Origin: Candidatus Campbellbacteria bacterium
GTDB lineage: Bacteria; Patescibacteriota; Minisyncoccia; Phycocordibacterales; EsbW-18
Reading direction: 5' to 3'
Assembly (NCBI GenBank): GCA_016699465.1
Contig: CP064977.1
Span: 409,743-473,742, forward strand
DNA: 64,000 nt
In this document: one piece after another, positions 5,197 through 63,434 of the stretch
Layout of the letters: the number at the start of each line of letters is the position of its first letter
Numbering within the stretch: position 1 is the stretch's first letter
Notes under the pieces: generated by a model
The model's database searches: none
The model's input: the letters and a program-made list of their open reading frames with translations, nothing else
Told to the model about the DNA's origin: nothing
Translations under genes and position numbers: made by a program

Positions 5197-5334
5197 GCAT
5201 TTTGAAACGTGAATTTATGGTCAAATGAGCCAATCTGTGAATATCGAATAAAAGCTCGCCACAGGGGCAAACAAATGGCAAAAAAGGGGCTACAAACGGC
5301 TCCTTTTTGCTTTTCAAGGTACTTATTGGATTGG

Positions 5335-6831: not shown

Positions 6832-6884
6832 GCGGTGGTTTGGTTCATAGAAGTGACCTCACACTTTTACTGACCCCACCTTGC

Positions 6885-7964: not shown

Positions 7965-8060
7965 CGAACAGGGCTCTCCGCAAGGTGAGCCCTCAAGCTA
8001 TTTTAGGAGGGTGGTAATAAAGAAATTATAAAAAATTAGTAAAGAATTTATAAACTAACC

Positions 8061-9644
8061 ATGAACTACTTAATTTACGGCCGTGTCTCTACCTCTCGTC
8101 AGGCCGAACGAGAATTGAGTATTCCGGCTCAAGTGAAAGCGTGTCAGAAGTACGGCATGGATCACGGTTGGAATCTTGCACCTGATGGCATCTACGAGGA
8201 AAAGGGTGAATCAGCTCGAACGGTTGAGCGTCCTCAGCTTCAGAAAATGCTTCATCGGGCAAAGACTGATAACAAGGTCGATGCAATCTTAATGCACAAA
8301 CTTGATCGTATGTGTCGCAACGTTGCGGACTACGCCGCAATAAAGATGATGCTCAAAAAGCACGACGTCCGACTGATCTCGGTGGTCGAGCAATTTGATG
8401 AGTCTTTCTCCGGAGAGCTGGTCGAGAACATCATGTCATCGATCGCTCAATGGACGTCCCAGAACATCAGCTGGGAGGTCAGGAAGGGTCTTAAAGAGGC
8501 CGTAGAGCGTGGCAGGTTCCCCGGATACGCACCAATCGGCTATATGAACGATCGGAAGACCAAATCCCTGATCGTGGATACTGTTCGAGCACCATATGTG
8601 AAGCTGGGGTTTGAGCTTTATGCGACAGGCAAATTTTCTTACTACACACTCGGTGACGAATTGGCAAAACGAGGTCTCAAGAGCAAGGCTGGCAAACGTG
8701 TCTCAAAAAAAGGCGTTGAGCGGATGCTTCAAAATTCGATCTACTACGGTCTTATAAAAACACGATCAGCTACCAATCAGGCAAACTTCCCGTCACTCAT
8801 CACTAAGAAACTGTTTGATGACGTACAGGAGATCATCGCCCAGCACAATCACTATGCCGATCGGTCTCGCAAACACACCTTTCCGCTTACTGGCTTTATG
8901 CGATGTGGTTACTGCGGTTCTATGTTGAGTGGTCAGGTAAAAAAGGGTCATCTGTACTATAACTGCTCTCACCGGCGTGATGCCAAATGTCCGGAAAGAA
9001 AGTACACACGATCAGAGCTTATCGAAGAGCAGGTCGTGGCGTATCTCTCACGAGTCGAGTTGCCACCTAAGTTCAAGACGGTCTTGGATGCGTACTTCCA
9101 GCACTTCGCAAAAGAGCGTATGGATCAGGAGGAAAACGAACGCAAAAGCATTAAGCATGACCTGATCAGAGTGCAACAGCAGATCCGTAATATTGTCGTG
9201 GATCGCTCAAAACGCATCATTGACGCAGAGGTTTTTATAAAGATTCAGGACGAGCTTCTTAAGGAGAAAGAGATGTATCAAGATCGCTTGGCCGAGCTCG
9301 AGGGTAAGTCAGACAAATTCGTGCAGAAATTCAATGAGCTTCTCGACTTCACGGATCACGCCGATGAAGTGTACCAAAAGAGTGGCACTAGTCAGAAGCG
9401 AACGGTACTAAAGCTTTGCATTGAGGGGTTCACAGTCAGAAATCAAAAACTGACGCCGATATGGACGCCAGTCTTTGATGTTCTTATGGACTTACAATTG
9501 TCCAAGTTCGATCCCCCAAAAGTCGGCGGCAAGGGTTCTAAAACCGCCTCAAAAACCCTTGCCGTACCTAAGGTTCTAACTTGGACATCTGGCGGAGAGG
9601 GAGGGATTCGAACCCTCGGACCAGTTTCCCGGTCAGCATCTTAG
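8061..9644 (+). CDS. large serine recombinase (integrase)
   Basis: N-terminal resolvase domain (YGRVSTSRQ, catalytic Ser), recombinase domain and a Cys-rich zinc ribbon (CGYCGS...CSHRRDAKCP). The 3' end overlaps the tRNA-Ser 3' end. Confidence 0.8.
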   Translation: MNYLIYGRVSTSRQAERELSIPAQVKACQKYGMDHGWNLAPDGIYEEKGESARTVERPQLQKMLHRAKTDNKVDAILMHKLDRMCRNVADYAAIKMMLKKHDVRLISVVEQFDESFSGELVENIMSSIAQWTSQNISWEVRKGLKEAVERGRFPGYAPIGYMNDRKTKSLIVDTVRAPYVKLGFELYATGKFSYYTLGDELAKRGLKSKAGKRVSKKGVERMLQNSIYYGLIKTRSATNQANFPSLITKKLFDDVQEIIAQHNHYADRSRKHTFPLTGFMRCGYCGSMLSGQVKKGHLYYNCSHRRDAKCPERKYTRSELIEEQVVAYLSRVELPPKFKTVLDAYFQHFAKERMDQEENERKSIKHDLIRVQQQIRNIVVDRSKRIIDAEVFIKIQDELLKEKEMYQDRLAELEGKSDKFVQKFNELLDFTDHADEVYQKSGTSQKRTVLKLCIEGFTVRNQKLTPIWTPVFDVLMDLQLSKFDPPKVGGKGSKTASKTLAVPKVLTWTSGGEGGIRTLGPVSRSAS

Positions 9645-9679
9645 CAGGATGCTGCATTCGACCGCTCTGCCACCTCTCC
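9591..9679 (-). tRNA. tRNA-Ser(GCU), class II with long variable arm, CCA encoded
   Basis: Folded by hand: acceptor GGAGAGG/CCTCTCC, 3-bp D-stem, anticodon arm GCATC-CTGCTAA-GATGC (anticodon GCT), long variable arm, T-arm GAGGG-TTCGAAT-CCCTC, G73, CCA. Confidence 0.8.
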
Positions 9680-9787
9680 AGGTGTCTCGGAAAAGGCTCT
9701 GCCACCCTTCCAGTTCGCACAATGTACCACGTTTTTGACGCTATTTCTACAGACATTCACCTATTCATTCTATAGAATAGAGATGCT

Positions 9788-10588
9788 GTGAGTATAAAAA
9801 AGTTTCGAAAAACAGTATGGAGTTATTACCGCCAACACGGCCGTATATTGCCATGGAGAAAAACACGCGACCCCTACAAAATCCTTATGTCGGAAATCAT
9901 GCTCCAACAAACACAAGTAGACCGTGTTGTTTCAAAGTACACAGCGTTTACGAAACAATTCCCAAATTTCAAAACACTCGCAAATGCAAGAACGTCGGAT
10001 GTTATACAAGCATGGCAAGGTCTCGGATATAATCGCCGAGCACTCAATCTCCAGCGCTGCACGCAAGAAGTCGTACAAAAATACAAGGGCAAACTTCCAT
10101 CATCGTATACTGAGCTAGTTTCCCTTCCTGGAATTGGACCATACACCGCAGGTGCGATCATGGCATTTGCATACAACAAACCTATTGCATGTATTGAGAC
10201 AAATATTCGAGCAGTGTACATCCATCATTTTTTCTCTCCTACAAAAAAAGTATCTGACAAAGAATTACTACTGTTGATTGAACAAACACTTGATACACAA
10301 AATCCACGCGAATGGTACTGGGCGCTCATGGATTATGGTTCCTATCTCAAAAAAACACTTCCCAACCCTGCTCGACGCAGTACACACCACACAAAACAAA
10401 AAATGTTTAAAGGTTCTAATCGACAGTTGCGCGGAAATATACTGAAACTAGTATCTCAAAAAAGTATCTCTGAAAAAAAACTTTTCGCTGAAATACAAAG
10501 AAAGCCAATTGAAATACGGGGCGCTCTTACAGCACTTACAAAAGAAGGATTTATACAAAAGAAAGGGGCAAACATTTCTCTTATATAA
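9788..10588 (+). CDS. HhH-GPD base-excision glycosylase, MutY/Nth-like
   Basis: LPWRKTRDPYKILMSEIMLQQTQV and HhH GIGPYTAGAI motifs. Confidence 0.7.
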   Translation: MSIKKFRKTVWSYYRQHGRILPWRKTRDPYKILMSEIMLQQTQVDRVVSKYTAFTKQFPNFKTLANARTSDVIQAWQGLGYNRRALNLQRCTQEVVQKYKGKLPSSYTELVSLPGIGPYTAGAIMAFAYNKPIACIETNIRAVYIHHFFSPTKKVSDKELLLLIEQTLDTQNPREWYWALMDYGSYLKKTLPNPARRSTHHTKQKMFKGSNRQLRGNILKLVSQKSISEKKLFAEIQRKPIEIRGALTALTKEGFIQKKGANISLI

Positions 10589-10632
10589 GAAAAGGCCGTG
10601 TTCGGGGTCGAAACCCCGAACACGGCCTGCTG

Positions 10633-11478
10633 TCAGAACGTCCAGATTGTCGAGACGGTCGGCGTCGCCGGGATGGCGAATCGCCCACTTCGGCTGTCGC
10701 TCTCCGACCGGAGGAGCGATAGCTTCAGCTTCATCAGCCGCCCCTGATACGAAACACTCGGCTTGGCGTAGATTGAATATCGTTCCTTGTCGGAAGCGAT
10801 CACGCCACCCGACATCCCGAGGACCCACGGCCCCTTCTCGTACACGTACGACATCTCGCCGTACGCGTACAGACGATCGCCGTCGCCGTAGGCCGTATGG
10901 TAAACGCCGACATACTGCCACCCGAGCTCGGTTGACCATCCACCACGAAGTGTTCGACTGAACGAACCCAGCGGGCCGATGAAGGTCGAGGACTTTCCGC
11001 CTCGGTACGGCGGAGCGTAAAAAATCTCTACGCCCGCCTTCCCCGACCACTTACCCAGAGAAAACTTCCTCTGAATGATGGGATCGATGAAGTGGGCCAT
11101 GACGCCGGCATCGTGCGTCCCGAGGGCTTTGACACCCAAGAGGAACACGTCCCAGTTGTCGTCAGCGTACGTGAGCGACAACCCCGCGATGGGATCGTCG
11201 CTCGCCACGGAGCCGAAGGACTTGAACGCGGATCGCGAAGACCAACTGGTCTCCAGCGTCCACAGATCGTCCTTCTCGAGCACCGTGACTGGAGCGATGT
11301 TCACCCCGGTCACCAGGTTCGTGGTCATGGCGAGCTGGTCGCCGTTGACCTCCTGACCATGCGCCGCGATGGCACAGGCCAGAGGCCAGCCCACCAACAG
11401 CGCGAGGACGATCCACAGTAGAGGCTGTGCGGTCTTCTTGTTGACTCGAGCAACGAGGGCCGTGTTCAGACTCTTCAC
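10633..11478 (-). CDS. outer-membrane beta-barrel-like protein (high-GC island)
   Basis: Signal peptide, alternating beta-strand pattern, C-terminal ...WTF aromatic terminus. About 62% GC versus about 43% in the flanking genes. Confidence 0.4.
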   Translation of the reverse strand: MKSLNTALVARVNKKTAQPLLWIVLALLVGWPLACAIAAHGQEVNGDQLAMTTNLVTGVNIAPVTVLEKDDLWTLETSWSSRSAFKSFGSVASDDPIAGLSLTYADDNWDVFLLGVKALGTHDAGVMAHFIDPIIQRKFSLGKWSGKAGVEIFYAPPYRGGKSSTFIGPLGSFSRTLRGGWSTELGWQYVGVYHTAYGDGDRLYAYGEMSYVYEKGPWVLGMSGGVIASDKERYSIYAKPSVSYQGRLMKLKLSLLRSESDSRSGRFAIPATPTVSTIWTF

Positions 11479-11610
11479 TTTGCCACCTCCTAGGTTCCCG
11501 TTCGACGATGTGTCGAAACGTGTTTTCTGTATATTAGTATAGCAAAAATAACGTATTTGTCAACACCTAGAGATCTGTTTGTCAAAATACGCTTGTAATT
11601 CTTATACAAA

Positions 11611-12200
11611 TTACAAGTGGCTTGCTTCAAGAGCCCGATTAATCTCAATGAGCGCCCTACGATGTGTGGGAGCAAATAAAGAAATGTGCTCAGAGGAGAA
11701 GTGGTACGGTGGGGACAAATGTTGTGTATATGCAGAATCACCTTGGACGTAACCGAGTTCATGGAGAATGCGCAATACCAGAAGAACTTCAAATGAAGCT
11801 ATATTGTCTTGTGTGACCTCAGGACCAGCGAGTGCAGAGAGTCCATCCCACACCAAATCAAACAAAACACTTCCTTGTTCTTCATCGACGATAAGTCGAC
11901 GAACAAGGTGGAGTACCCGAATGGCAAGCATTCTTTTTGTCTATCTTCATGTTCAAAAAAAATTGATGAAACAGGCGTAACGTTAGTGATACGCCACCCA
12001 TCACGAGATCGGACAAGCGATACATCTGACACAGAAGAAAATTGCAAACCATATCGATGACGAGAACGTCCTTCGCGTGATGACTGACAACGCGCAAACA
12101 CCACGCCCATATCGGCGGTAAACAAACGATAGGTACGACTCGCCTCACCGACGTTATACGCGCCGAGAACAATTGCCTTTGTATGATGCTTGGAATACAT
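11611..12200 (-). pseudogene. recO: recO, disrupted by a frameshift near 11900-11935 (or sequencing error)
   Basis: N-terminal OB-fold region (KAIVLGAYNVGEASRTYRLFT...) in one frame. RecO C-terminal region (LVRRLIVDEEQ...FEVLLVLRILHELGY) in the overlapping frame. Confidence 0.45.
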
Positions 12201-12328: not shown

Positions 12329-15300
12329 TTAGTGTATATTGAAAATATAGGATTCCTCCCCAGTGTCTCCAATGGAAACAGAGAGATCTGTAAGATTTGT
12401 TGTCTTCATGAGTGCTTCTTTGTATTCCTCAATAAGTTTTTTTCCGTCTTCGTTTGTAACAACAGAAAGTGCCGGAGCATCTGACGCAGTCAATCCTACT
12501 GTTTTTCTAAAATCTTGAATAGCACGCATCAAATCACGGACACTTCCTTCTTTCTGCAATTCAGGCGTCACCACGGTATCAAGCTCAACATCCCAACCTG
12601 CGTCCTCTTTGAAAAAGACTTCTTTTACATTTACTTCATCGGAAATCAACGCAACAAGTTCTGGAAACTTTTGTAGCGTAAGATTTCCACCTCGAAGTGT
12701 CAGCGATGCGAGTGGCTGACGCACTTTTACTCCTGCTGTCATACGTGCCTCAAGAGCCCGCGACGCAACATCTCGTGTTTTCTGCATGTTTTTTACAATC
12801 TCTTTTTCCTTCTTTGATTCATGACCAAATATTCCAGTATCTGCTTTTGGCCACGTCTCCAAGTGCACGCTTTCTAACTCACCGCCAATGGAAGTATATA
12901 TTTCTTCAGCAAAGAACGGTGCAAATGGTGCCAGTATCTGAGCAAGTGTTTTCAGTACATGGTGTGTCGTTGCAAGTGCCTGTTCCCTATCCTCAACATT
13001 TTCTGACTTAAATCTCTCTCGTGAACGGCGAATGTACCACGTAGAAAGATCCTGAACAAAATCTCGAATTGCACGCGTAGGTTCAAAAACATGGTACGTC
13101 TCAAGACCTTGCGTTACATCAGCAACAAGCTCATTGAGTCGCGTCAAAATCCACACATCAAGAACACGTTTGGAGACTGGAGACTGGAGACTGGAGACTG
13201 GAGCTTCATCCTTGTACATCTCATAGAACTTCACCACATTGCGAGTAATCGTAAATACTTTTTTTGATACCTCATCAACTGTTTTTTCATCAAAGTTTTT
13301 TGAATCACCTGGTTGATTCACGGAATACATCCAAAAACGAATGACATCAACTCCGTATTTTGCTATTGCCTCCCATGGATTCACCACGTTACCAATCGAC
13401 TTACTCATCTTTTTACCTTTTGCATCCAAAATGTGTCCAAGGCAAATAACATTTTCAAATGCGCGCCCTTTCCCCATGAGAGCACCCACAGCATGCAGTG
13501 TGTAAAACCACCCGCGCGTCTGATCAATTGCTTCAGAAATGTACTGCGCAGGATATCCTTGCCCATCAATCCATTCTTTATTTTCAAAAGGATAGTGATC
13601 TTGTGCAAATGGCATAGCGCCTGAATCAAACCATACGTCCATCACTTCAGGAGTACGCTTCATGCGTGCAGTACATTTTGGACACGTCACCTCTACCTCA
13701 TCGATGTATGGCTTGTGTAAATCAATATCAAAGGTGTCATTGTGTGGAAGTGGTACAAAGCCAAATTCAAGCACGTGTGCAAGTTCAAGTGGTGTTGTTG
13801 CCATAATACGCTCAGCACGCGCATCATCTGCACCTTCCAAAATTGCTAGAACAGTAGAAAAACCGATTCCGTGAGTGACAACAATAATGTGTTCATCCTC
13901 ATGCCGACTATCAATGTCATACAAAAACTCTGCAAAACGTCGTCGAGCATCTGCATAACTTTCCCCATTAGGAAGCGCATCAGTATATCTATATCCATTC
14001 GCTTTTCTAAACGCAAACACTTCTTTGTGTTGTTTGCCATTAAAATCACCATACCCGAGCTCTCGCAATCGCTCATCAACAACAATGGCATCCGGAGATA
14101 TACCGAGCTCTTGTGCAAGAATATTTGCCGTCTCACGAGTTCGCACAAATGGCGACGTGTATAGTGTCGTCACTTTTTCTTTCTGAATTTTTTTACTTGC
14201 GTGCACAACCTGCTCTTTTCCTTTCTCCGTTATGTGATCTGGTCCATTTGGATCTGCACTCGCAGTGTCTAACACATTATTCTGCGCTTCTCCGTGCCGA
14301 ACAAACGTAAATGTATTTCCACGGGACTTTGTAATCTTTTTGAGATGTTCAATAGATGATACGACTTCCGTGTGATGACAGTGCTCACAATTCCAGACAG
14401 GTAATGGAGTTCCCCAGTACCTATCACGAGAAAACGCCCAATCTTTTACCTCACGAAGCCATTCACCAAAACGTCCTTCTTTAATATGTTCTGGTACCCA
14501 ATGAATTTTTTATTTTCCTTAACTAATTCATCACGCAACTCCGACATGCGAATGTACCACGAATCCCGCGCATAGTAGATAAGTGCCGTATGACAGCGCC
14601 AACAGTGTGGGTATGTGTGTTCAAATTTTTCTTTCTTAAATAAAAGATTTCGTCCTGCCAAATCTTTAATAACTTCAACGGCAGTTGATTCATCACGCAC
14701 AAAGAGTCCTTCATAGAGCCCTGTGCCTTGTACAAAATGCCCCGTCTCATCTACAAGATGCCACTTCGGCAATCCAACCTTGTTTCCCAATTCAAAATCT
14801 TCCTGTCCGTACATCACCGCAGTGTGCACAATACCTGTACCGTCTGTTGTCGTCACAAAATCCGCAGAGTACACCTTGTACGCATTCTGCATTTTTTCTT
14901 TTTCAGGGCCAGAAATAAGCGTGTTCAAAAATGGAAAAAGTGGTTCGTACGTAAGACCAATAAGTGCTTCACCTAAACATTCTTCAACAACTTCATACCC
15001 TTCACCCAACACAGAAAGTCGATCCCTTCCAAGCCACAAAAATTCACCACCATGAGAAACTTTTACATACGAAATTTTTTCTCCAATAGCAAGACCAACG
15101 TTTCCAAGAAGTGTCCACGGCGTTGTCGTCCATGCAAGTAAGTATGTATTTTCTTCTCCTACAAGTGCAAACTTCACATACACCGAAATATCTTTTACAT
15201 CTTCATATCCCTGCGCGAGCTCATGGCTTGAAAGTGCTGTCCCACAACGCGGACACCACGGGAGCACTTTGTAATCCTTATAGAGAAGTTCTCGCTTGTG

Positions 15301-28129: not shown

Positions 28130-28150
28130 ATTCTACCATTCATCACACAT

Positions 28151-28212
28151 ATAAAAATGAAACCCCCGTGCAGTGAGCACGGGGGGGCAAAGCTAGACAT
28201 CAGGCAGCGCGA
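28151..28212 (-). terminator. terminator module copy 1 (downstream of gene A)
   Basis: cccccgtgctcactgcacggggg hairpin plus tttcattttt on the minus strand. Near-identical to the module at 29044-29103. Confidence 0.55.
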
Positions 28213-28886
28213 GTGTGAGAGAACACGAGACGCCCGGCGTCCCAAGCGAGGCCGTGGTCGACCTTGCCGGCGCCGACGACCCAGCCGCCGCTGCCGGCGT
28301 GCCAGAGGACGTTCACGAGCCGCAAGACGCCCTTGGCGTCCCGAACCCGGAACAGGTTCGCCCTGCCGTCGACGTGGAGCTTGCCACGCCGACCCTGACC
28401 CTGACGCTTCATCAGCGCCCAGATCTGGCCGCACGTGGCCTCCTCGACACCTTCGCCGAGCGCGGTGTTGATGTCCGCGCAGTAGGCGGTGCGGGTGAGC
28501 TCGTTGCGCCGGAGCGCGAGCGGAGGCTGCGCCTCCTCGACGAGACCGCCGAAGCAGCTCGTGAAGAAGCCGTCGATGTACCCCACCTTCACGCCGTCCG
28601 TCTTGCCCACCTTGAAGTGAGCGGAGACGTCGAAGCTCGGGATGGCGGCGATCTTCACCGTGTCGAGGTAGCGGAAGAGCGGCGGAACGGCCGGCTTCTC
28701 AATCTCGACGATGCGATGCGTGCCGTCGAGCACGCACTCGACATTCTGCAGCTTGCCGTCGACGTAACCCTGCACGATCCGACCGACAACAACAGGATCG
28801 AGAGACCCCTCCCTGACCCGTCGGAACCAGTCGTGTTGCTGTCGGGCAAACTTGCCCAATGCCGTGTCGTCTGCGACGTGAGTCAT
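28200..28886 (-). CDS. hypothetical protein A (GC-rich island)
   Basis: RBS AAAGGAGAG then 5 nt then ATG (MTHVADD...). About 64% GC. No recognisable domain. Confidence 0.45.
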   Translation of the reverse strand: MTHVADDTALGKFARQQHDWFRRVREGSLDPVVVGRIVQGYVDGKLQNVECVLDGTHRIVEIEKPAVPPLFRYLDTVKIAAIPSFDVSAHFKVGKTDGVKVGYIDGFFTSCFGGLVEEAQPPLALRRNELTRTAYCADINTALGEGVEEATCGQIWALMKRQGQGRRGKLHVDGRANLFRVRDAKGVLRLVNVLWHAGSGGWVVGAGKVDHGLAWDAGRLVFSHTRAA

Positions 28887-28912
28887 GACGACTCTCCTTT
28901 CATGCCCGCAGG

Positions 28913-29036
28913 TCTCCATTGACCGCGGTTGTGAAAGCTCGTATTTAAGCCCTCAAAACCACGGCCAATTGATTGGTTTAGAAAGAACACACGCACCAGT
29001 AGTACGCGTAAAAGTGGGGGTTGTCAATGTTGGTGA
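28913..29036 (-). repeat. about 120-bp promoter/5'UTR module, copy 1 (upstream of gene A)
   Basis: Near-identical to 29785-29907. Contains minus-strand TTGACA (29022-29027) and internal CCATTGAC-type inverted half-sites. Confidence 0.7.
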
Positions 29037-29043
29037 GATTTTT

Positions 29044-29103
29044 ATAAAAATGAAACCCCCGTGCAGTGAGCATGGGGGCAAAGCGAGACATCAGACAGCG
29101 CGA
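29044..29103 (-). terminator. terminator module copy 2 (downstream of gene B)
   Basis: Same hairpin plus T-tract as 28151-28212. The homology starts about 11 nt inside the coding 3' end. Confidence 0.55.
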
Positions 29104-29741
29104 AAATCAGCGGCAACGGAGCTGTCCCAGCTAGGGTTGATCCATTGCCCCATCGAGCAAACAAGATTCGCTTCTTGGTGCCAATATCCGTAGCGAACAT
29201 ACAGAAAGTTGGCAATATGCGAACGGTGGAAGGTATCACCGAGGAAGAACACCCGGATTGCATTTCCATTGGTATCCTTCTTCCACGACTCCGGCCAGAG
29301 CTCGGAACGCTTGATCAAGTAGTCAAGCACCTTGGCACCGACATTACCACCCGACTCATCAACCACCTTTCGGTGGTGACCCCCGTCGGCATCGATGGTA
29401 AGAAGGCTAAGCGGCTTACCATCAAGATACAACATGTCGCCCTGACGCTTGAGTTTGACAACGCCCGACTTCGGCGGGCTCATCCGCTCGAGTCCGAGGT
29501 CGTCAGACGGAAGCATACAGGGAACCGAGAAATCGATGGTGTGCTCCAGAGGATTGATCTCGTGCGTGCCGCGAAGAACCCCGATGTGAAGATCAAAGTC
29601 CGCCGGCCTGGACTTCACCATCTGAAAAAAGTCCAGAAGGTCTTGAACCGACCGCTTCCCATCCAAGACAAGCGGCCAGATTCCGAAAACCCAAAGCTTC
29701 CACAACCTCTCAGCCAGAATTTGGACGGTATTGGCGCCCAT
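29091..29741 (-). CDS. hypothetical protein B (GC-rich island)
   Basis: RBS AAGGAGAAAAT then ATG (MGANTVQILAERL...). No confident family assignment. Confidence 0.45.
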   Translation of the reverse strand: MGANTVQILAERLWKLWVFGIWPLVLDGKRSVQDLLDFFQMVKSRPADFDLHIGVLRGTHEINPLEHTIDFSVPCMLPSDDLGLERMSPPKSGVVKLKRQGDMLYLDGKPLSLLTIDADGGHHRKVVDESGGNVGAKVLDYLIKRSELWPESWKKDTNGNAIRVFFLGDTFHRSHIANFLYVRYGYWHQEANLVCSMGQWINPSWDSSVAADFRAV

Positions 29742-46152: not shown

Positions 46153-46953
46153 TCACTCGTTCATCTGCGCTGCCTGTCGGCAGCGCAGAAGCGCCCGACC
46201 GGCGATTCTCTTGCAGAGAGCTCGCTTATCCTCGTCTGAAAGATCTCGTGGCGTCCGGTTCCCCTTCTTCGCCTCACTGAGAGACGCCAGGAGAACACGC
46301 TCCTTCGTGTTCCCGAAGAGCGTATCAAGAATGTCCTCCATGGCGGGGAGAAGAAGTTGTGCCTCCCGCTTCCGAGAAAGCGTGTCCTTGCGTACACCCG
46401 GAAGCAAGGGAGCCATGATGAGATCCGCCGCTCCCCACACCGACATTGCAAACAGGAGCGGAAGCGGATCCACATACGACTTCGGCCACATCTTCTCCGC
46501 CATGCCCTCGCGGACAGGCAATGAGATCTGGGAAGCCACTTCCCTCCAGATATGCCAGAGTCTGGACAAAGAACGCTGAATCCGCTCCGGATAGGGCGGA
46601 CGCTTCAGACACCCAGCACCAGTGGAAAGGAATGCGAGCACCTTGTAGTAGGTGGAGAACGCATCCTCTGGCGACACGTGGACAGCCACGGATACGTCTC
46701 CCAGAAAGCGCTCCGTCGCGAAAACCTGCATCGCATTGTCCGCAACGTCGCCTTCACCTTCCTCATGAGGAACATCTAGAAGAAATGTCACTTGCTCACA
46801 GAACAGGCGAACCTCATCTGGCGTCCTCATGCTCCCCGGGAGCACCTTACGAAGAGCGTACAGCAGCCCGATTGCCTCGGCTTCCGAAGCAGTGTTCTTC
46901 CACCGCTCCTGAAACTGCCCCCACGACGTGATTACCGCTAACTGTCTCGGCAT
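46153..46953 (-). CDS. hypothetical protein (GC-rich, inserted in the str operon)
   Basis: Strong RBS GAGAAAGGAG. About 60% GC. No recognisable domain. Confidence 0.45.
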   Translation of the reverse strand: MPRQLAVITSWGQFQERWKNTASEAEAIGLLYALRKVLPGSMRTPDEVRLFCEQVTFLLDVPHEEGEGDVADNAMQVFATERFLGDVSVAVHVSPEDAFSTYYKVLAFLSTGAGCLKRPPYPERIQRSLSRLWHIWREVASQISLPVREGMAEKMWPKSYVDPLPLLFAMSVWGAADLIMAPLLPGVRKDTLSRKREAQLLLPAMEDILDTLFGNTKERVLLASLSEAKKGNRTPRDLSDEDKRALCKRIAGRALLRCRQAAQMNE

Positions 46954-47098: not shown

Positions 47099-47616
47099 TT
47101 ACGGAACGTACCCACCAATGACACCCTTCCAACGAAATTCGTTGATTTCGCCCCCATTTCCCTCCCTGCTCTGAAAGATGTCCACGGTCACACGATCACC
47201 CGCACGGGTAAGCGCACACACATCAACCGCTCCCTCGTTCATAGGCAATGAGTTTCTGATGGCCGTAAACTCCAGAGGGCTTCCCGACAGCATCAAAGGT
47301 CTACTGAATTGAATCTTCCCTTTTTCCGGACGTACGATAAGCTTGCATCCAGTAATCTTCATAACAACGACCGACGTTCCATCTGCACCTGCTGCGCCTG
47401 CAATTGCCCCAAGTGTCGGCATGCCAACAAACGAACCAATGATGGCACCACCAATCGCATCACCACCGGCGCCAGATGGTGTTACTTTTTCTTCGGCAAG
47501 CACCCGCACCTCCTGAACAATTGCGGTAACCGAAGCGTATTGTGTGACCTCCCCGCAATCGGAGTACTGGCCAACAACGGTCATGAGAACAAGCAGTGAA
47601 CCGCGCACATTCATGT
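47099..47616 (-). CDS. SlyB-like glycine-zipper outer-membrane lipoprotein family protein
   Basis: Signal peptide. Glycine zipper GAGGDAIGGAIIGSFVGMPTLGAIAGAAGADG. RBS AGGGGGAAA. GC-rich. Confidence 0.5.
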
Positions 47617-54781: not shown

Positions 54782-55617
54782 TCAGAGCTGGGCAAACTTC
54801 TCCGTCAGATCGTTGACGAACTGGTGGAACTCGGGCTTCTTCTGGATGTCGGCTTCCCACGCAATCCCCATGTCCACCAAGTTGAACGTCTCCTTGATGT
54901 AGGCACCGGGAACGATGTCGCCGGTCGTTGGATTGCGATCACGACCCATCAGCCAAATCGTGTCCGCGATCTTCGCTGCTGCCGTGATGTCGTGCGACAC
55001 GACGATGGTGGTGTTGAGCTCATTCATGGAGGAAACCTCCATGATGAGATCACAGACACGGTTCTTCACGAGAGGGTCGAGTCCCGAGAACGGCTCGTCC
55101 ATCAGAAGAAAGTGTTCTGAACACATCAACTGTTGAGCGATGGCAACACGCTGGCGCTGGCCGCCAGAAAGCTGCTTGGGGTACTTCCCCGAGTGCTCGG
55201 TGAGACCGAACTTCTCGAGCAGACCTTTGGCTTTCACCAGGGACTGCTGGTCGTTAAGGCCAGCTTGTTTCCCCGCCACAACAAGGTTGCCGAGCACTGT
55301 CCGGTGCATCAGAACACGGTAGTCCTGAGACACCACACCAACTTGTCCCGCCGAAACGGGAATGCCGGTTCCGTTGAGAACGACCTGTCCTACAGTTGGA
55401 TGGAGAAGGCCCGCCATGATGCGGAAGAGTGTCGTCTTGCCGACGCCCGAGGGGCCGAGAAGTGCGACAACCTGCCCGCGAACGAAACCTTCCTGCTTGA
55501 TGTTGTAGACAGCCGTCGTCACGTCGCGGAGAATCGGAACATCCATCCCTTCTGGGGTGAAGCCGACACCGTCGATGTGAAGAAGGATCTCGCCGAACGT
55601 GTAGGTGGGAATCATGG
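54782..55617 (-). CDS. ABC transporter ATP-binding protein (GC-rich block)
   Basis: Walker A GPSGVGKTT, signature LSGGQRQRVAIA, Walker B LLMDEPFSGLD. RBS GGAGAAGAGG. Start immediately follows the permease stop. Confidence 0.8.
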
Positions 55618-56408
55618 CTACCTCTTCTCCAGTCCCAATTGGGACCACGGGCAGACCGCGCGTTTGAACATCACCTGCACCTGATCGAACAACAATCCGA
55701 TACAGAGGATGGAAAACTGGATTGCGTAGATCTCAGGCAACTTGAGGAACTTGCTCTGTGTAAGCAGCAATGCCCCGACGCCACCCTCCGATCGCACCAG
55801 TCCTTCCACTACCGTCAACATCATCCACGCGATTGCCGCGTTCTGCCGTATGGCCTCGAGCACCAAGTCGGCCTTGCCGAGCACGATGACTTCGAAGACT
55901 GTTCGCCACGGTCCCATGCGGAGTGTCCGCGCATGGTCGAGCTCGTCTTTCGTCACTGAATCGACGATTGACAGAATGCTCGGAACCATGAAAACAGACA
56001 AACCAAACACGAGAACCGTGAGCTTGAGCAGGTGTCCACCCCCCGTGAGAAGGGTGAAGATGAAGTTGAGTCCGACGAGCCCGAGGAAGCGCATCTTGGA
56101 GACGAGCTGTCCAGCAGGCTTGAAGAATTGCAGGACACGAAGGTAGCCGAGCCCGAGTGAGAATGTGGTTGCGATGAGAATCGCTTCCACACAGGTCACG
56201 AAGCTGGCCTTCATCGCCTGACCCAAACCGTAGCTGATCCATAGGTGCCCAAAGGCACCGATGACCTCCATCGGCTTGGGAATGACCTTCATGGGCCAGG
56301 CGATCCAGATTCCGAGAGCCACCAGTACCTGGAACGCTACCATGATGGCAGCGTCCTTCCTGGGCACTGTGGCGTGCGGCGTGAACAGCCGCGCGAGTGC
56401 GGTTTTCA
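55618..56408 (-). CDS. ABC transporter permease (NitT/TauT-like)
   Basis: 6-TM permease with an EAA-like loop. RBS AAAGGAGAG. Confidence 0.7.
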
Positions 56409-56659: not shown

Positions 56660-58483
56660 TCAGTTCGTCGAACCGAGCACAATCTCCACACGACGGTTCT
56701 GTGCCTTGCCTTCGGACGTCGTGTTGGACGCCTTGGGCTCGGTCTCGCCGAACGCACGGATGCGAATTCGGCCGTTCGGGAAGTTGGCAGGAGCTTCGTG
56801 CTCCAACCACTCCTTGACGGCGAATGCACGCTGCTCGGAGAGCAGCATGTTACTCTCGTCGTCTCCATCGGAGTCGGTGTGTCCGTGAACCTCCACGGCT
56901 AGCGCTTCGGCGATGACGAGATCCTTCAGCAACTGCTGAAGCTTCGCGAGTGCATCTGGCGTGAACTGGGCCGAGCCACTCACGAAGTTGATCTGCCATG
57001 CTTTGCGCGACACCTCGTCACGAATGCGGGTGGATGACGTGAATGTCGGCGCATCGGCCGTCGTTGTGACACCCACCCGATCCCGAAGCTCTTCGATGAA
57101 CCGGGTGTTGATCACCTGATCCACAGGAGTGTACATCGGGAAATCCTTCGGGTACTGCTGCGAAAGCAGCGAACCGAAGTTCTCATACACCAGCTTGGCG
57201 GTCTTCGCCGAACCAGGGGTCAGGCCGAACAAGCGCAGGTTGTCGGCGAGGTTGTTGGCGTAACTTCCGCCAAGTTCGACCTCGATTCCCTTCTTGTCGC
57301 GCTCGCGCACGACGGTGTAGTACTTCTTCCAGTAGGCCGCCGTCTCCTCGCGGTAGACGTCGGCGCTCACCTTTGCAGCGAAGTCCAGAGCGGCGGGACT
57401 GAACTTGATGTTGTCTCCACCTTCCAGCGCCGCACGCAGGAAGTTCACGACGAGCTCAGGGTGAGCCGTGTCGAACTTCTTGATGCCGATGATTGCGTTG
57501 GGCATCTGGCTGCTGTACTCCTTGGTAGAAGCCAGCGAAACCAAGCCACCCTTCTTCTGTGCAACCATCACATCGCCCGGCGTCCACGTTGCAACACCGT
57601 TGACGCAGACGTGCTTAGCGTCACCCGTACGCCGACCGTTCTTCACGACCGGACGGTCTTCGCAGTAGCCGGTGATGTACTTCTCCGCGGCATCCATGTA
57701 ACTGGCGGCCCGGACCCAGTTGACTGCGTCCGGATCGTACGTCGTTTCGTCGCGATTGTTGATGACGCCGTTGTCCCCCTGGAACTTCAAGCAGACGTTC
57801 CAGTCACCGTCAGTGATGACACCAGCGAAAAGCGCGCCACGCATGGCTTGCGGATTGTGCTTCCATTCCGGCAGACCCATGCACTTGTCCTCGCCGCGGC
57901 TGTAGCCGAGCGAGCCCACATATTCCACCGTGTACTCCGAGCCGAGCCGGCCGAGCGTATTGTTGACCGTCGTAACGAACGCGGGAGCACCGTCCCACAT
58001 GATGGACACATGAGTTGCGCCACCGCTACATTCCGAGCCGCCCGACGAAGACATCTCCGTCGCACAGGTGACGAGGTCGGCTTGCATCTGGCTCACGTCG
58101 TCCTGGCGGTACCAGTAGACGTTGCTTCCGTACTTCGCCATGAGCGAACCGTCCATGGGGACGTTCCCGCCCATCGCGTACCAAAGACCCATCTGCGAAC
58201 TCCACGCCCATCCGGCGATCCGCATCTGCGGGCCGGACATACGGGCGGGGGTGTTGCTCGGCGCCGACGAGGGGACGAATCCCTGCGTCGCCGACGAACT
58301 GGCGGTGCTCAGCGTCGGAAGATCGACCTGCTTGGGCAGGATCGACTTCATGATATTGCTGCCGGGGATGAGCCCGAAGTAATCGAGCCCCAGGTAGCCG
58401 ACGAAGAACGCGGCGATGATGATGCCGAGCTTGGGAAGCGGGCCCAGACGGGCCCAGAAACTGCGCTGATCGTTTCCGTTCAT
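56660..58483 (-). CDS. membrane-anchored periplasmic substrate-binding-like domain fused to a C-terminal OmpA-like peptidoglycan-binding domain
   Basis: N-terminal TM segment. Central SBP-like region. C-terminal OmpA_C motif (...AFGETEP...NRRVEIVL). Confidence 0.5.
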   Translation of the reverse strand: MNGNDQRSFWARLGPLPKLGIIIAAFFVGYLGLDYFGLIPGSNIMKSILPKQVDLPTLSTASSSATQGFVPSSAPSNTPARMSGPQMRIAGWAWSSQMGLWYAMGGNVPMDGSLMAKYGSNVYWYRQDDVSQMQADLVTCATEMSSSGGSECSGGATHVSIMWDGAPAFVTTVNNTLGRLGSEYTVEYVGSLGYSRGEDKCMGLPEWKHNPQAMRGALFAGVITDGDWNVCLKFQGDNGVINNRDETTYDPDAVNWVRAASYMDAAEKYITGYCEDRPVVKNGRRTGDAKHVCVNGVATWTPGDVMVAQKKGGLVSLASTKEYSSQMPNAIIGIKKFDTAHPELVVNFLRAALEGGDNIKFSPAALDFAAKVSADVYREETAAYWKKYYTVVRERDKKGIEVELGGSYANNLADNLRLFGLTPGSAKTAKLVYENFGSLLSQQYPKDFPMYTPVDQVINTRFIEELRDRVGVTTTADAPTFTSSTRIRDEVSRKAWQINFVSGSAQFTPDALAKLQQLLKDLVIAEALAVEVHGHTDSDGDDESNMLLSEQRAFAVKEWLEHEAPANFPNGRIRIRAFGETEPKASNTTSEGKAQNRRVEIVLGSTN

Positions 58484-58552: not shown

Positions 58553-59650
58553 TCAGCGCGCCACGAGAAGTGGCTCGCGTTGCTGCGGGGTCGTGATGAC
58601 CTGCGCGAGACCGGAGACACCACCTTCGGTGAGAAGGCGCTGTTCGGACGCCGCGCGATCCAGCAAGTTCGTTGCCCTCGCGTCGAACTCGTCCATCTTG
58701 GAGAGTTCGGCGAACATCTTGTCCTCGGCCATGTCGCCCTCCAGCTCGTACGACCCCGTGAATTCCGGAGTCATCCGCATGAAGACCTCGACTTCGGCCT
58801 CGGACTGGGCGATCTGCTCACCCATGTACTCCATGGAGAGAGCGAAGAACTCCGCCTGGCTGTTCCCACCACCGAGCGTGCTCGACACGATGTTCACGGC
58901 CTCTCGGGTTTCCTCCGAGGCCTTGAACTCGGCCGTCATGATCTCGACGGTGAGTTGGATCATCCTGATGTAGAACTTGTACGCCTGGACGAACTTCTCC
59001 AGGACGACCTGCCGCTTCTTGAGAAGCTCGAGTTGGAACTCGAACTTCTTGAGCGACTTGGACCGCATCTCGTACTCGAAGGAAGCCTCGCGAAACTGCG
59101 CTGACTTCTCTTCACTGCTCCAACGGCCCGTCTTATCGTCGTAGTGACGAGACTTGAGGGCCTCCGCTGTTCTGCGAGCGGTCTCGATCTGCTCCTTGGT
59201 CACTGCGATCGCTCGCTCACGCTCTTTGACGATTGCGACGAGACGGCTGAGTGCACTGACCAAATTGTTGAGCTGGGTACCGAGGTACTCGTGCGCGTAC
59301 AACTTGGCGTGTTCCGCCGGGTTCATACGAAGAATCCAGAGGCTCATCTTCTTGGCAAGACGCCGGTAGATGTGCCATCCGAGAGTCCTTGTCCCCGGTT
59401 GGATTGCGACCCACACCGCACCACCGAGAAGCGCCGCCTTGATAGCGATCGCCGTCATGTAGCTGAACGATGTGCTGATGAGGCCGAGCGTCGAGACGAT
59501 GCTCGGCAGGACCAGAGGGCCGATGCCGAAGGTGACCGCCGCGACGATTGCCGCGAGGGTGAGTGCACCGACGACCTTCTCCTTCTTGGCCACGAAGTCC
59601 TTCATGGACGACGAGCCCGAGGAGAGTTGTGGAACTGAGGGCAGGTTCAT
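58553..59650 (-). CDS. membrane-associated coiled-coil protein, possibly TelA-like
   Basis: Two N-terminal hydrophobic segments then a long alpha-helical/coiled-coil region. RBS AAAGGA. Confidence 0.35.
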   Translation of the reverse strand: MNLPSVPQLSSGSSSMKDFVAKKEKVVGALTLAAIVAAVTFGIGPLVLPSIVSTLGLISTSFSYMTAIAIKAALLGGAVWVAIQPGTRTLGWHIYRRLAKKMSLWILRMNPAEHAKLYAHEYLGTQLNNLVSALSRLVAIVKERERAIAVTKEQIETARRTAEALKSRHYDDKTGRWSSEEKSAQFREASFEYEMRSKSLKKFEFQLELLKKRQVVLEKFVQAYKFYIRMIQLTVEIMTAEFKASEETREAVNIVSSTLGGGNSQAEFFALSMEYMGEQIAQSEAEVEVFMRMTPEFTGSYELEGDMAEDKMFAELSKMDEFDARATNLLDRAASEQRLLTEGGVSGLAQVITTPQQREPLLVAR

Positions 59651-59685
59651 GAATATCCTTTCTTGCAGTGCTTTCGTTGACCTAG

Positions 59686-60431
59686 TTACTGGTTGACTTC
59701 CGACAGAAGCCGCGAGAACTCCGACATCAGCGGTTCGTGAGCGCTCTCGAATCTGGCCCGGACTTCCGAGACCATGTTCGAGAGCTCGTTGACGCTCTGC
59801 TCGGCAAGGGCTCGCGCCCGCTTCGCCTCTTCGAGCTGACGCTCGAGATCGGCGACGTGCGACGTAGCGTCTTGCAACGCCTGCCGTCGACTGACCGTCG
59901 CCTGTTGCGACTCTTCGGCGATCTGCTCTTCGAATACGACACGCGCATTCTCGAGCACCGCCAGCCGTTCACGCACGGATGCGATGACCTGCTGACGACT
60001 GATCTTCTGGACACGCTCCAGAGACTTGAGCGTCATCGACACAGCCTGTCGTCTGTCGGCGACATCGTCGTCGATAACGTCGAGCTGTGTGAGAAACTCC
60101 TCGAGTCCTGCGGTCGTCACCTTCTCCGCGATGTCCTTTCGGAGTTTCGCGGAGAACGTCGGATCTGGCTCCTTGGGAGCGACCGACGATGATGTCTTCT
60201 GCTGAAAGCGCGCCGGTGCGATTCCGAGCGGCAAGAGCGGCTCGGAACGTACTGGCGGAGGAGGACTGGACGACGCATGACTTGCGAAAGTCGGCACGCG
60301 TCCAGACGGAGACGCCGCTCGAGGGGTCGGTGTAGGCACCGTCGAAGACGGCGTCTCCGATTCCCTCTTACGGCGCTCCAACTCCTCCGGGGTTGGAGCC
60401 AGGATGAGATCTCTGAGTTTCACGCTCATTA
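59686..60431 (-). CDS. coiled-coil protein with Pro/Ser-rich N-terminal region (hypothetical)
   Basis: RBS AAAGGAGTA then ATG (MSVKLRDL...). C-terminal heptad-like coiled coil. Confidence 0.4.
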
Positions 60432-61059
60432 CTCCTTTCTGATTCTGTTGCTGTTTCTGTATGCTGGTGAACGGTGACTTCTGACGTGCTTCTTCAGAGT
60501 CGATCGGTTGGTCGCTTCGGCCGCGCATTGAATGCACGCCAACCACGACGTTTTCCTCGAACATCCGAGAGAATCACGGCACTTCCGCTTTCTGGAAACG
60601 ACTTCTCCTTCCACACCGGTGGCGTGAGAGAAAAAGTAACGCTTCCTTGAAGTTCGGGAGTGTCTTCCTCTGCCTGTGCAACTGCGTACGGGCCATGTGG
60701 TCCTTCGAGGTACACCCGTTGGACGATACACACCCATCGCTTCTTCTGCGGTGGCGGAATAGTAATCACCTCCTTTCCATTGTAATGACAAAGAACAGTG
60801 AATAAGAAAAAGCTCGCAACACGATGTTACGGGCCTTTTCACTGGTCGCAAGTATAGCAAATTTAAAACATTCGTCAAGTAGACACACATGCTATTTTGT
60901 GTTGATTTAAAATACGAAAAAGCCCCGAACAAATCGGCCTGTGGGGCTCGTTCGTTTGGGGCCTGTGTATCTCGCGTAGGGTGATGCTTCAGCCGACTCG
61001 CTTCGCGTTGCGAAAGCGAATCTCGTCGATGCGTGCCGCCAACTTGACGGGTGTAGTAA

Positions 61060-62456: not shown

Positions 62457-63029
62457 CTACCTACCCTTGGAAATCTCCACGATGGTTGACGCCGGCCTTT
62501 GGTCGGCTCGTACCCACCCGTTCGCCGTTTTCTTGACGGCGAACGGGAAGGTGGTCACCTTCTGTTCAGTGTAAACAGGGGCAAGGCTACCATCGAAATC
62601 CACACACAAGACGAACGTTCCGTCTGTGTTTTTCGAGCTGAAGAGTCCGTTGGGTTCCGGCTGCTCGATGATGCCGCTCTGCCGATTGTCCTCGTAGGCC
62701 GGCTTGAGCGGGTTCGTCAGTTGGGTATCCACCGGAATGGCGAGCCCAACCGACGGACATTCGAAGAGTAGCTCACCCGTGATCGCAGTGACCACGGTGT
62801 AGGTGCTCCGGTTGCCCGAGACGGTCGCCTTGTAGATCTGGATGAGCACGTCTCGCGGCATCGAGTAATCGAAGAAGGGGATGGGTTGAACCTTAGCGTA
62901 GTGCGCCTGCTGGTCATCCACCACCTTGCGATCCATCCGCTCCTGACCGCCTCCACAGCTTTCGTTGCCGGCGAGAAGGACGAAGAAAAACGGACAGGCG
63001 AGTACAGCGAACAGTCTCTTGATGTTCAT
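62457..63029 (-). CDS. secreted/lipoprotein-like hypothetical protein
   Basis: Signal peptide with a Cys following (LLAGNESC). Confidence 0.4.
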   Translation of the reverse strand: MNIKRLFAVLACPFFFVLLAGNESCGGGQERMDRKVVDDQQAHYAKVQPIPFFDYSMPRDVLIQIYKATVSGNRSTYTVVTAITGELLFECPSVGLAIPVDTQLTNPLKPAYEDNRQSGIIEQPEPNGLFSSKNTDGTFVLCVDFDGSLAPVYTEQKVTTFPFAVKKTANGWVRADQRPASTIVEISKGR

Positions 63030-63050
63030 GTTCTCTCCTTGTGTACGGTT

Positions 63051-63434
63051 CTATGAGACGTTCTGTGCGAGGAACACCGTGATGGAACGCGGAACTTCAC
63101 TTTCCGGAATAAGGTCGGCCTCCGAACGCATCTTGTCGACGAGTGCCTTCTGCTGAGCGCGCTTCGCCGCCATGATCTTGACGCTCATGGAGTCGTCAAT
63201 GCTGGCGGAGAGCGCAATGCACTCCGACTCGAGCTTGAGCCACTCGTTGTGTAGCTCCTGCAGAAGCGAGACCTTAGCCTCGATGTACTGCTGGCTGTGC
63301 TGGACGACCTCCCGCTGAATGTTCATGAGTGGAAGATTCCAGATGCTCAGGTAGGCGCCGAGAACGGCGACGACTGTCGCTGCGAGGAACATCCATACGA
63401 TGAACTTGAGCACGTCCTTCATGGTGTCGAACAT
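63051..63434 (-). CDS. membrane-anchored hypothetical protein
   Basis: RBS GGAGAAGGAAAG. N-terminal TM segment. Helical C-terminal region. Confidence 0.4.
   Translation of the reverse strand: MFDTMKDVLKFIVWMFLAATVVAVLGAYLSIWNLPLMNIQREVVQHSQQYIEAKVSLLQELHNEWLKLESECIALSASIDDSMSVKIMAAKRAQQKALVDKMRSEADLIPESEVPRSITVFLAQNVS

Follow-up and report, generated by a model that had tools for sequence, protein, structure and literature searches.

GC-rich genes with strongly folded coding sequences in a Candidatus Campbellbacteria chromosome

The focal gene and its compositional setting

We analysed a 64-kb stretch of the chromosome of a Candidatus Campbellbacteria bacterium, a member of the candidate phyla radiation (CPR/Patescibacteria), hereafter called the window, and focused on a GC-rich gene at 10633..11478 on the minus strand (the focal gene), which is predicted to encode a secreted, porin-like beta-barrel protein. 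Loci from other genomes that served for comparison covered at most 21 kb each. The window fits a CPR/Patescibacteria chromosome, with compact housekeeping genes and a 23S rRNA gene accompanied by tRNAs and 5S rRNA, with no 16S rRNA gene nearby. Against its background of 43% GC, scattered genes reach 55–66% GC (here called island genes). In sliding windows of 500 nt, GC rises from 0.38–0.48 to 0.52–0.62 at 10.5–11.5, 27.5–30, 46–47.5, 55–61.5 and 62.5–63.5 kb, and the GC content at third codon positions (GC3) is 0.361 ± 0.037 in 28 backbone genes and 0.62–0.85 in 11 island genes. The shift falls at the start and stop codons of the open reading frames (ORFs), within ~10–60 nt, and the intergenic spacers are AT-rich. 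An AT-rich promoter of native type lies ahead of each GC-rich unit, and several of these promoters are close to the consensus; only six near-consensus sites exist in the 64 kb, one of which leads to the 23S rRNA and three to GC-rich units, including the focal gene. The original prediction had described GC-rich genes set at gene-level granularity, with AT-rich host-like promoters, into a backbone of about 43% GC. Per-gene GC3 and sliding-window GC bear out the mosaic, and the borders at start and stop codons, together with native-type promoters that abut the GC-rich ORFs, bear out its granularity. The GC mosaic is thereby confirmed as genuine.

The islands are chromosomally integrated accessory genes of several origins. 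Their codon usage is shifted generally to all G/C-ending codons and looks like a diluted Acidobacteria usage. Translational selection for optimal codons was rejected as a cause, because the genes for ribosomal proteins, EF-G and pilin reach a GC3 of only 0.35–0.40, and it is further disfavoured by AAG, GAG and CAG rising alongside NNC in the islands. A phage or defence origin of the island proteins is likewise unsupported, as PHROGs and PADLOC yielded nothing convincing and scans of viral contigs with three of the proteins were negative.

The focal gene has a GC content of 0.61 and a GC3 of 0.78, and its 281-aa product is 100% identical to the hypothetical protein IPJ70_02330 [Candidatus Campbellbacteria bacterium]. 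The 110 nt upstream of the ORF are only 38% GC and hold the promoter and an AGGAGG ribosome-binding site. The AT-rich promoter (11536..11563, minus strand; TTGACA-16-TG-TATACT) agrees with the sigma-70 consensus at 11 of 12 positions, has an extended −10 element, and lies in a segment 94% identical to the relative L001. The putative Shine-Dalgarno sequence, AGGAGGTGG (11483..11491, minus strand), is located ~6 nt before the GTG start. On the other side, a predicted intrinsic terminator with a 16-bp stem followed by a T tract (10593..10628, minus strand) separates the focal gene from a convergent gene at 9788..10588 (plus strand), assigned by Pfam to the HhH-GPD glycosylases and of backbone type (GC3 0.33). 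No mobility signatures (integrase, tRNA, direct repeats) were found at the borders of the focal gene, where its own promoter and terminator lie; a tRNA-Ser gene and a serine recombinase gene are part of another element on the far side of the HhH-GPD gene.

Orthologues with 60–73% identity were found in five other assemblies (L001–L005), in the order IleRS, recO, focal gene and convergent HhH-GPD gene. The gene thus occupies the same position in 5/5 related assemblies recovered, with no sporadic presence, and all five copies have a GC3 of 0.73–0.84 between flanks of 0.33–0.57. A homologue of only 27% identity (L006/L007) lies again beside an HhH-GPD gene, a neighbour kept throughout L001–L007, and has a GC3 of 0.76 versus 0.46–0.57 in its immediate neighbours. 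Two further homologues in CPR-like contexts (L012, L017) are likewise GC-rich. Among 1.84 billion proteins, the family is represented 15 times, in each case in a CPR-like context, and no donor for it was found in the databases. Judged by this synteny, the focal gene appears to be an old resident of a conserved chromosomal slot. In L002, an additional GC-rich gene of 258 aa (8973–9749; GC3 0.73, fold z = −2.9) separates recO from the porin-like gene, so that this slot seems to gain GC-rich genes in some lineages.

The predicted structure of the focal protein is a 12-stranded antiparallel transmembrane beta-barrel resembling KdgM/NanC; a model built from four sequences was discarded for its low predicted local distance difference test score (pLDDT 47). 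By inspection of the alignment, the family begins with a hydrophobic helix, after which comes a conserved motif (AHGQE or AxA-Q), similar to a signal peptide, and 13/15 members end in F or W after alternating hydrophobic residues, similar to a beta-signal. The focal protein is therefore predicted to be a Sec-exported porin-like barrel, and the earlier call of a beta-barrel with an aromatic C-terminus is upheld by the 12-stranded model and the F/W ends. No sequence-profile match was obtained in Pfam or NCBIfam, nor, with a profile of 15 sequences, to any PDB chain at E ≤ 1. In contrast to the 12-stranded outer-membrane barrels (KdgM/NanC porins, Tsx, COG4313 channels, autotransporter beta-domains), to which the focal protein has no sequence-level relationship, this family was seen in CPR-like contexts only. 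CPR bacteria are generally considered to have neither an outer membrane nor the beta-barrel assembly machinery (BAM, with BamA). We found no porin-like barrels from CPR in the literature, although this search was narrow and is weak evidence.

As an alternative to transfer, it had been proposed that the contig is chimeric, with reads of a high-GC organism mixed into a CPR genome by mis-assembly. The contig does seem to carry indel errors as error-prone long-read assemblies do, since ileS and recO are split. However, Logan contig L008, assembled independently from a separate run (SRR11674038), equals 45821–51848 of the window at 100% identity over 6,028 bp and crosses the island junctions at 46100 and 47700. 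On a 778-kb scaffold from a different CPR genome (L014), a GC-rich block around an OmpA_C gene (the OmpA block, see below) is mosaic in the same way, and, taken together, the orthologues of this block and of the focal gene are equally mosaic, at the same places, in assemblies of at least six other samples. Native-type promoters that abut GC-rich ORFs also speak against a chimera, of which coupled start/stop overlaps and gene-level granularity are atypical. Exact-sequence look-ups of the focal protein, of a metallo-beta-lactamase (MBL) protein and of folD returned no contigs. Assembly integrity is shown at the two junctions and for two further islands, and we reject the chimera as extremely improbable.

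Silent sites and mRNA folding of the island genes

We compared 4-fold degenerate sites in codons with a conserved amino acid, of which the focal gene provides only ~85–105 per pair. Between the window and L002/L003, identity at these sites is 0.39–0.41 in the focal gene (random expectation 0.32–0.35) and 0.39–0.46 in ileS (random 0.25–0.30). The silent sites of the focal gene are as saturated as those of the backbone, and despite this saturation both copies of a pair stay at a GC content of 0.71–0.83 at 4-fold sites (GC4). Among the sites that are G/C in both copies, 40–41% have switched between G and C. With S for G/C and W for A/T, P(W|S) is 0.21–0.22 and P(S|W) 0.70–0.84, corresponding to an equilibrium GC4 of 0.77–0.79, which equals the observed value. 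In ileS and the HhH-GPD gene, P(W|S) is 0.46–0.67 and P(S|W) 0.22–0.39, with an equilibrium of 0.30–0.33 between AT-rich lineages, and the difference in substitution pattern between the focal gene and its flanks is significant (Fisher p 1e-12 to 2e-7). The five-gene OmpA block behaves in the same manner between the window and L014, with 0.35 of the sites switched between G and C; GC4 is 0.69/0.62, and the equilibrium works out at 0.65.

Only ~6% exchange between G and C accompanies a P(W|S) of 0.35–0.46 in the flanks, so the process acting on the backbone could not yield the island pattern. Because the island genes hold their own GC-rich equilibrium at saturation, most of their divergence would have accumulated under a GC-favouring regime. 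The simplest reading for the syntenic focal gene is that this regime acts in place, and the high GC of the islands appears not to be a decaying relic. The recent import with unameliorated composition that was implicit in the original prediction is contradicted by this synonymous-site turnover at an equilibrium GC4 of 0.65–0.8. A parsimony polarisation of singleton substitutions, which gave an apparent excess of S→W changes, was set aside as invalid, because saturation at a GC3 of 0.75 alone gives ~9:1 and an AT-rich control gene had the mirror-image bias.

Between the window and L001, identity at 4-fold sites is 96% in ileS, 65% in the focal gene and 71% in the HhH-GPD gene. The latter two are far more diverged than ileS, which suggests that alleles have been exchanged here among related lineages, and the exchanged segment is itself mosaic since it includes the AT-rich HhH-GPD gene. 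The focal protein also diverges fast, with 69% identity between close strains versus 98% for IleRS. Antigen loci that are GC-rich and recombine do occur in AT-rich genomes (Borrelia vls is one). The evidence of recombination, the rapid protein divergence and the inferred GC-favouring fixation bias could all be accommodated by GC-biased gene conversion at recombination hot spots, in which fast-evolving surface or accessory genes would frequently recombine between diverged alleles and biased mismatch repair would raise their GC. We nevertheless consider this very unlikely. The GC content changes within ~10–60 nt of start and stop codons and the spacers are AT-rich, the co-recombined HhH-GPD gene stays at a GC3 of 0.33, and gene conversion offers no reason for folding beyond synonymous or local-block shuffles or for the asymmetry between sense and antisense strands, as reported in the following.

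Folding was scored as the z-value of the minimum free energy (MFE) against synonymous-codon shuffles that keep the protein and its codon usage, with 14–40 shuffles per gene. The focal mRNA is hyper-folded, with an MFE of −403.8 kcal/mol compared to −355.6 ± 8.5 for dinucleotide shuffles (z = −5.7) and −357.0 ± 7.6 for synonymous-codon shuffles (z = −6.1). Its orthologues yielded z-values of −6.6, −5.7, −4.1, −7.9, −5.8 and −1.4 (seven lineages together with the window). Shuffling within local blocks of 40 codons still left z at −3.6 to −5.5. The antisense strand gave z-values of −2.4 to −3.9 and folded more weakly by 46–71 kcal/mol, which indicates the sense RNA. The degree of folding is conserved, not a particular fold. 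A consensus obtained with RNAalifold, with 38 compensatory pairs that beat shuffles and slid controls, was dismissed as circular because it was built from the same four sequences.

The effect extends to the island genes as a class, with z-values of −2.4 to −7.9 for island mRNAs apart from the weakly folded ones named below. In the window, the 11 island genes have a mean z of −3.78 versus −0.57 for 35 others (Mann-Whitney p = 1.3e-5), and z falls with GC3 (Spearman rho = −0.56). At other CPR loci, the mean is −4.29 for 19 GC-rich genes versus −0.87 for 22 neighbours (p = 1.7e-5). Native GC-rich genes of Acidobacteria have mean z-values between ~0 and −1. For the gene of the OmpA_C protein, z is −0.08 in Acidobacteria, −5.25 in the window and −2.65 in L014, and the window copy, although lower in GC, folds more stably than the one from Acidobacteria.

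We tentatively favour, at somewhat less than an even chance, that class-specific selection for strongly folded mRNA maintains the GC content of the islands, where both the selection on RNA and its reason are inferred. We favour this reading because a single cause would cover both the GC-favouring silent sites and the excess pairing of the sense strand. The silent sites of the island genes would follow a GC-favouring regime with its own equilibrium (GC4 ~0.65–0.8, flanks ~0.3), with coding sequences arranged such that the sense RNA is far more stable than synonymous re-codings, and selection for heavily base-paired mRNA would keep silent G/C against the AT-biased mutation pressure of the genome. 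The benefit is speculative and might consist of a long transcript life or of throttled translation in cells with very few ribosomes. The near-consensus promoters of several GC-rich units match the type that precedes the rRNA. Bacterial coding regions have reportedly been described as selected for mRNA secondary structure, and in them native coding sequences likewise fold better than codon-shuffled versions. The effect in the window differs from that known case in being very large (z to −8), limited to one compositional gene class and coupled to a separate GC equilibrium. A narrow literature search, which is weak evidence, found nothing on non-ameliorating, hyper-folded GC-rich gene classes.

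Several points weigh against selection on mRNA folding. Three backbone-type genes reach z ≤ −3 (5806–6459, 22873–23430 and the MBL gene at 53504–54370), and folD and a gene at 61740–62273 show the same more weakly. Conversely, some GC-rich genes are weakly folded, namely the focal homologue in L012 (−1.4), the permease in L014 (−0.1) and h151 (−1.5). MFE prediction is crude for 700–900 nt, and few shuffles were made per gene. No conserved specific structure was detected across orthologues, as varied MFE pairs were kept at 0.27–0.45 compared to 0.36–0.43 in slid controls. The equilibrium argument presupposes a divergence of the orthologues within CPR genomes, and simple amelioration would give the same island codon usage, similar to diluted Acidobacteria usage. 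Finally, the reading gives no reason why just this gene class would need folded mRNA.

Origins of the other GC-rich units

The island at 55–61.5 kb contains an operon on the minus strand with a link to Acidobacteriota. It comprises an ATP-binding cassette (ABC) transporter ATPase gene (54782..55648, Pfam ABC_tran, GC3 0.71), whose start overlaps the stop of a BPD_transp_1-like ABC permease gene (55618..56406, GC3 0.75, fold z = −5.5), and a gene for a 607-aa membrane-anchored protein with a C-terminal OmpA_C domain (56660..58483, GC3 0.79, fold z = −5.25). Upstream of the operon lie genes for two coiled-coil/membrane proteins of 365 and 292 aa (58553..60564, minus strand, GC3 0.81 and 0.69, fold z = −4.8 and −4.4). 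All three operon genes have collinear counterparts of 50–54% identity in a metagenome-assembled genome (MAG) of Thermoanaerobaculia (L015, GC 0.66, GC3 0.89). The permease is 50% identical to its Acidobacteria orthologue, and the ATPase 52% to the Thermoanaerobaculia orthologue and 69% to that of the CPR relative L014. The 607-aa protein has ~3000 homologues, of which all named ones belong to Acidobacteriota (Thermoanaerobaculia, Vicinamibacteria), and four closer ones (66–72%) that include L014 with its CPR-like AT-rich backbone. In L014, the 365- and 292-aa proteins are kept with the operon (42–44% identity to h375 and h247), and the neighbourhood of the block is different from that in the window.

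An import of the OmpA_C/permease/ATPase operon from an Acidobacteriota-like diderm donor of 66% GC is thus well supported, judged by collinearity and identity. The claim of transfer from a high-GC diderm donor therefore holds for this operon only, and does not carry over to the focal gene, for which the databases hold no donor. The OmpA_C domain had further been counted among outer-membrane folds. Its presence is clear (Pfam PF00691, 62.0 bits vs a cutoff of 27.2, residues 500–597 of 607), but OmpA_C modules bind peptidoglycan and do not mark an outer membrane. No domain hit pointed to an 8-stranded OmpA barrel at the N-terminus, where 495 aa form a different domain common to the Acidobacteriota proteins. 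The protein resembles the OmpA_C/Pal/MotB type in its clear C-terminal domain and differs from OmpA, Pal and MotB in its N-terminal membrane helix with a ~450-aa domain and in the position of its gene beside an ABC permease and ATPase. It is probably the extracytoplasmic partner of the adjoining transporter.

Three further units are GC-enriched. Between rpsG (47774–48268) and fusA (43855–45999), two lineage-specific genes interrupt the otherwise highly conserved str operon (rpsL-rpsG-fusA). One is h266 (46153..46953, minus strand), encoding a 266-aa protein of no known family (GC3 0.66, fold z = −3.2); it is present in L008 and absent in the relative L009, in which a 171-aa gene runs straight to the sequence upstream of fusA. 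The other is this 171-aa gene itself (47099..47614, minus strand), present in both L008 and L009, which encodes a glycine-rich membrane protein and is mildly GC-enriched (GC3 0.50, fold z = +1.0). It had been described as a SlyB-like glycine-zipper lipoprotein gene of 58–64% GC, which we could not sustain: there was no Pfam or NCBIfam hit even at E ≤ 1, the N-terminus lacks an L-x-x-C lipobox, and the gene has 52–53% GC, leaving only a glycine-rich hydrophobic stretch. The third unit is a gene pair at 62457..63434 (minus strand) for a putative exported protein of 190 aa and a membrane/coiled-coil protein of 127 aa (GC3 0.75 and 0.80, z = −3.5 and −1.5), behind a near-consensus promoter at 63545.

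These data bear on plain transfer, the reading preferred in the original prediction, by which the islands would have come gene by gene from high-GC diderm donors and would still be ameliorating, their GC being a relic and their folding a by-product, for example if paired G/C in transcribed single-stranded DNA were shielded from deamination and survived longest. It agrees with the Acidobacteriota origin of the OmpA operon, with the codon usage of the islands, with the lower GC3 of the operon in the CPR copies (0.66–0.79) than in the donor-type genome (0.89), and with the occurrence of h266 in some close relatives and not in another. Import into Patescibacteria, transporter genes included, is also documented (PMC12455944). 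It fails to account for a focal gene that has no donor and is syntenic and always GC-rich in at least six assemblies or lineages, down to 27% identity. Moreover, island sites have switched between G and C at 35–41% with a P(W|S) of only 0.21–0.32, at which point the backbone process would already have lost G/C, and the observed P(S|W) of 0.6–0.84 shows a W→S flux that survivorship by itself would not produce. As an explanation of the islands in general, plain transfer seems unlikely to us.

Genes A and B constitute another island. Gene A (28200..28886, minus strand, its ORF extending to 28919) encodes 228 aa from the ATG at 28886, with a GC of 0.66 and a GC3 of 0.85; gene B (29091..29741, minus strand) encodes 216 aa with a GC3 of ~0.62 in the same type of expression cassette. 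A 127-nt promoter and 5′ leader (28906..29032, minus strand) recurs at 29777–29903 with 97% identity, and a segment of ~63 nt with the last codons and a hairpin terminator (28150..28212, minus strand) recurs at 29043–29103 with 92–97% identity. The two genes show no similarity in BLASTP and have only these flanks in common, so they appear to sit in a duplicated expression cassette. Next to it, at 29910–30360 (minus strand), we noticed an ORF-poor unit of ~450 nt and ~0.52 GC between a near-consensus promoter (30393) and a terminator, with an RNA fold z of −4.5 against 100 dinucleotide shuffles. It is a candidate for a structured non-coding RNA beside the A/B cassettes; Rfam families were found neither in the gene A/B leader nor, at E ≤ 1, in this unit.

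The N-terminal module of gene A (~45 aa) is 53–68% identical in MAGs of Parcubacteria, Paceibacterota, Saccharibacteria and Adlerbacteria, with variable C-termini, and in almost all of these loci the genes of the family are GC-rich relative to their surroundings (e.g., 0.67 vs 0.42). Over its full length, gene A is homologous (28–34%) to variable proteins of diversity-generating retroelements (DGRs), which are reportedly abundant in CPR. Its relatives in L019 and L021 possess a pair of variable and template repeats (VR/TR) and a reverse transcriptase (RT), with 21/24 (L019) and 24/24 (L021) mismatches at TR adenines. In the window, no TR-like repeat, VR pair or YxDD reverse-transcriptase ORF was found for gene A. 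The adenine mutagenesis of DGR targets covers ~120 nt and cannot explain the GC-richness of the whole gene. The complete DGRs (L019 7600–11600, L021 1900–4700) lie in MAG contigs labelled Bdellovibrionales and Gammaproteobacteria; the 4.9-kb 'Gammaproteobacteria' contig may be mis-binned, given its CPR-like backbone of 42% GC. The DGR in L019 combines one TR and one RT with two tandem targets whose promoter and terminator flanks are repeated, a layout resembling that of genes A and B. Beyond the CPR relatives, gene A has weak matches to Bdellovibrionales MAGs and Bradyrhizobium plasmids, the latter between its C-terminal half (28200–28620) and hypothetical proteins of 316-kb conjugative plasmids (31% identity, E = 5e-9).

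The wide distribution of the gene-A family in distant CPR lineages, GC-rich almost everywhere, and the cassette-like flanks around unrelated ORFs, also in L019, could point to a GC-rich reservoir (plasmids, phages, GC-richer relatives or hosts) that houses these genes for the greater part of their evolution and repeatedly re-seeds AT-rich CPR chromosomes by homologous or cassette-type replacement, with young resident copies. The allele replacement at the focal locus relative to L001, the different neighbourhoods of the OmpA block in the window and L014, and the integrated elements of these genomes, which are somewhat GC-richer than the backbone, are compatible with such a source. No reservoir was found, though, as viral contigs were negative for three island proteins and matches to PHROGs and plasmids were only weak. 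The segment replaced relative to L001 included the AT-rich HhH-GPD gene, so that its donor was an AT-rich CPR genome with the same mosaic, and the synteny of the focal gene across deep lineages also demands a CPR chromosome as source. The better folding of the CPR copies than of their Acidobacteria orthologues would remain unexplained as well. We regard a reservoir as quite unlikely.

Acquired genes of atypical composition are usually understood by the amelioration model (Lawrence & Ochman 1997, as cited in PMC12455944). The genes of the window resemble those of classical acquired islands in atypical GC and codon usage and in accessory and envelope-related roles, and also in that one operon has an identifiable donor (Acidobacteriota) and h266 occurs sporadically. 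They differ from them in that the focal gene is not bordered by an integrase, a tRNA or repeats, in single-gene granularity under native promoters, in synteny of the focal gene across deep lineages, in a composition that does not relax to the host value despite saturation, and in hyper-folded mRNAs, unlike orthologues in a donor-type genome. Atypical GC is routinely taken for newly arrived foreign DNA or blamed on faulty binning or assembly, and MAG curation often filters it out. If the mosaic pattern holds genome-wide, calls of transfer or contamination made from composition would go wrong on a class of CPR genes that is real and may be functionally coherent, and the pattern would provide a testable handle on post-transcriptional control in unculturable organisms.

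For bacteria believed to be bounded by one membrane only, a predicted porin-type barrel is a candidate interface protein between symbiont and host, and a possible partner lineage is suggested by the transporter operon derived from Acidobacteriota. Selection on mRNA folding could be extended accordingly to a host-interface or envelope gene class kept in an adaptive 'GC-rich, hyper-structured mRNA' state that would act as a programme of post-transcriptional expression. The barrel, in a cell that has no outer membrane itself, would then need to insert into that of a host bacterium, with Acidobacteriota as candidate hosts, an extension that we consider doubtful. If it were true, gene-level GC mosaicism in CPR would mark a regulatory or functional class and not recent ancestry.

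Additional features of the window

The first part of the window (1–9680) is a defence-type island with the PADLOC candidate system PDC-S06 (36–2366, E = 7e-114), a Cas4-like nuclease (2376–3134) and a helix-turn-helix protein (7248–7964). It ends with a large serine recombinase gene (8061–9644) abutting a tRNA-Ser(GCU) gene at 9590–9679, which is inverted compared to its orientation in the relatives L001 and L003.

Upstream of the focal gene, recO (11611–12200) and ileS (12329–15807) are each represented by two ORFs in the window and are intact in the relatives (RecO 196 aa, IleRS 1155–1165 aa); the splits probably reflect either false indels in a long-read assembly or genes that have recently become pseudogenes. 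In the window and the relatives, IleRS of this clade contains an inserted His_Phos_1 (histidine phosphatase) domain, an unusual fusion.

The rRNA region at 36651–41234 (minus strand) is arranged as 23S, then tRNAs, then 5S, without a 16S rRNA gene in the 64 kb, and has a near-consensus promoter at 41593. Between the 23S rRNA and the genes for tRNA-Leu, tRNA-Cys and 5S rRNA lies an Rfam tRNA match of 41.6 bits over 151 nt (37113–37263, minus strand) that was not called by ARAGORN and could represent a tRNA gene interrupted by a large insertion or an intron.

Further along on the minus strand, a gene at 49739–50170 encodes a 143-aa protein of PF05635, the family of 23S rRNA intervening-sequence proteins that also includes Avd of DGRs, with no adjoining reverse transcriptase. 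It is followed at 50609–53383 (minus strand) by a gene for a 924-aa PD40 (WD40-like beta-propeller) repeat protein with many diverged internal DNA repeats of 66–78% identity.

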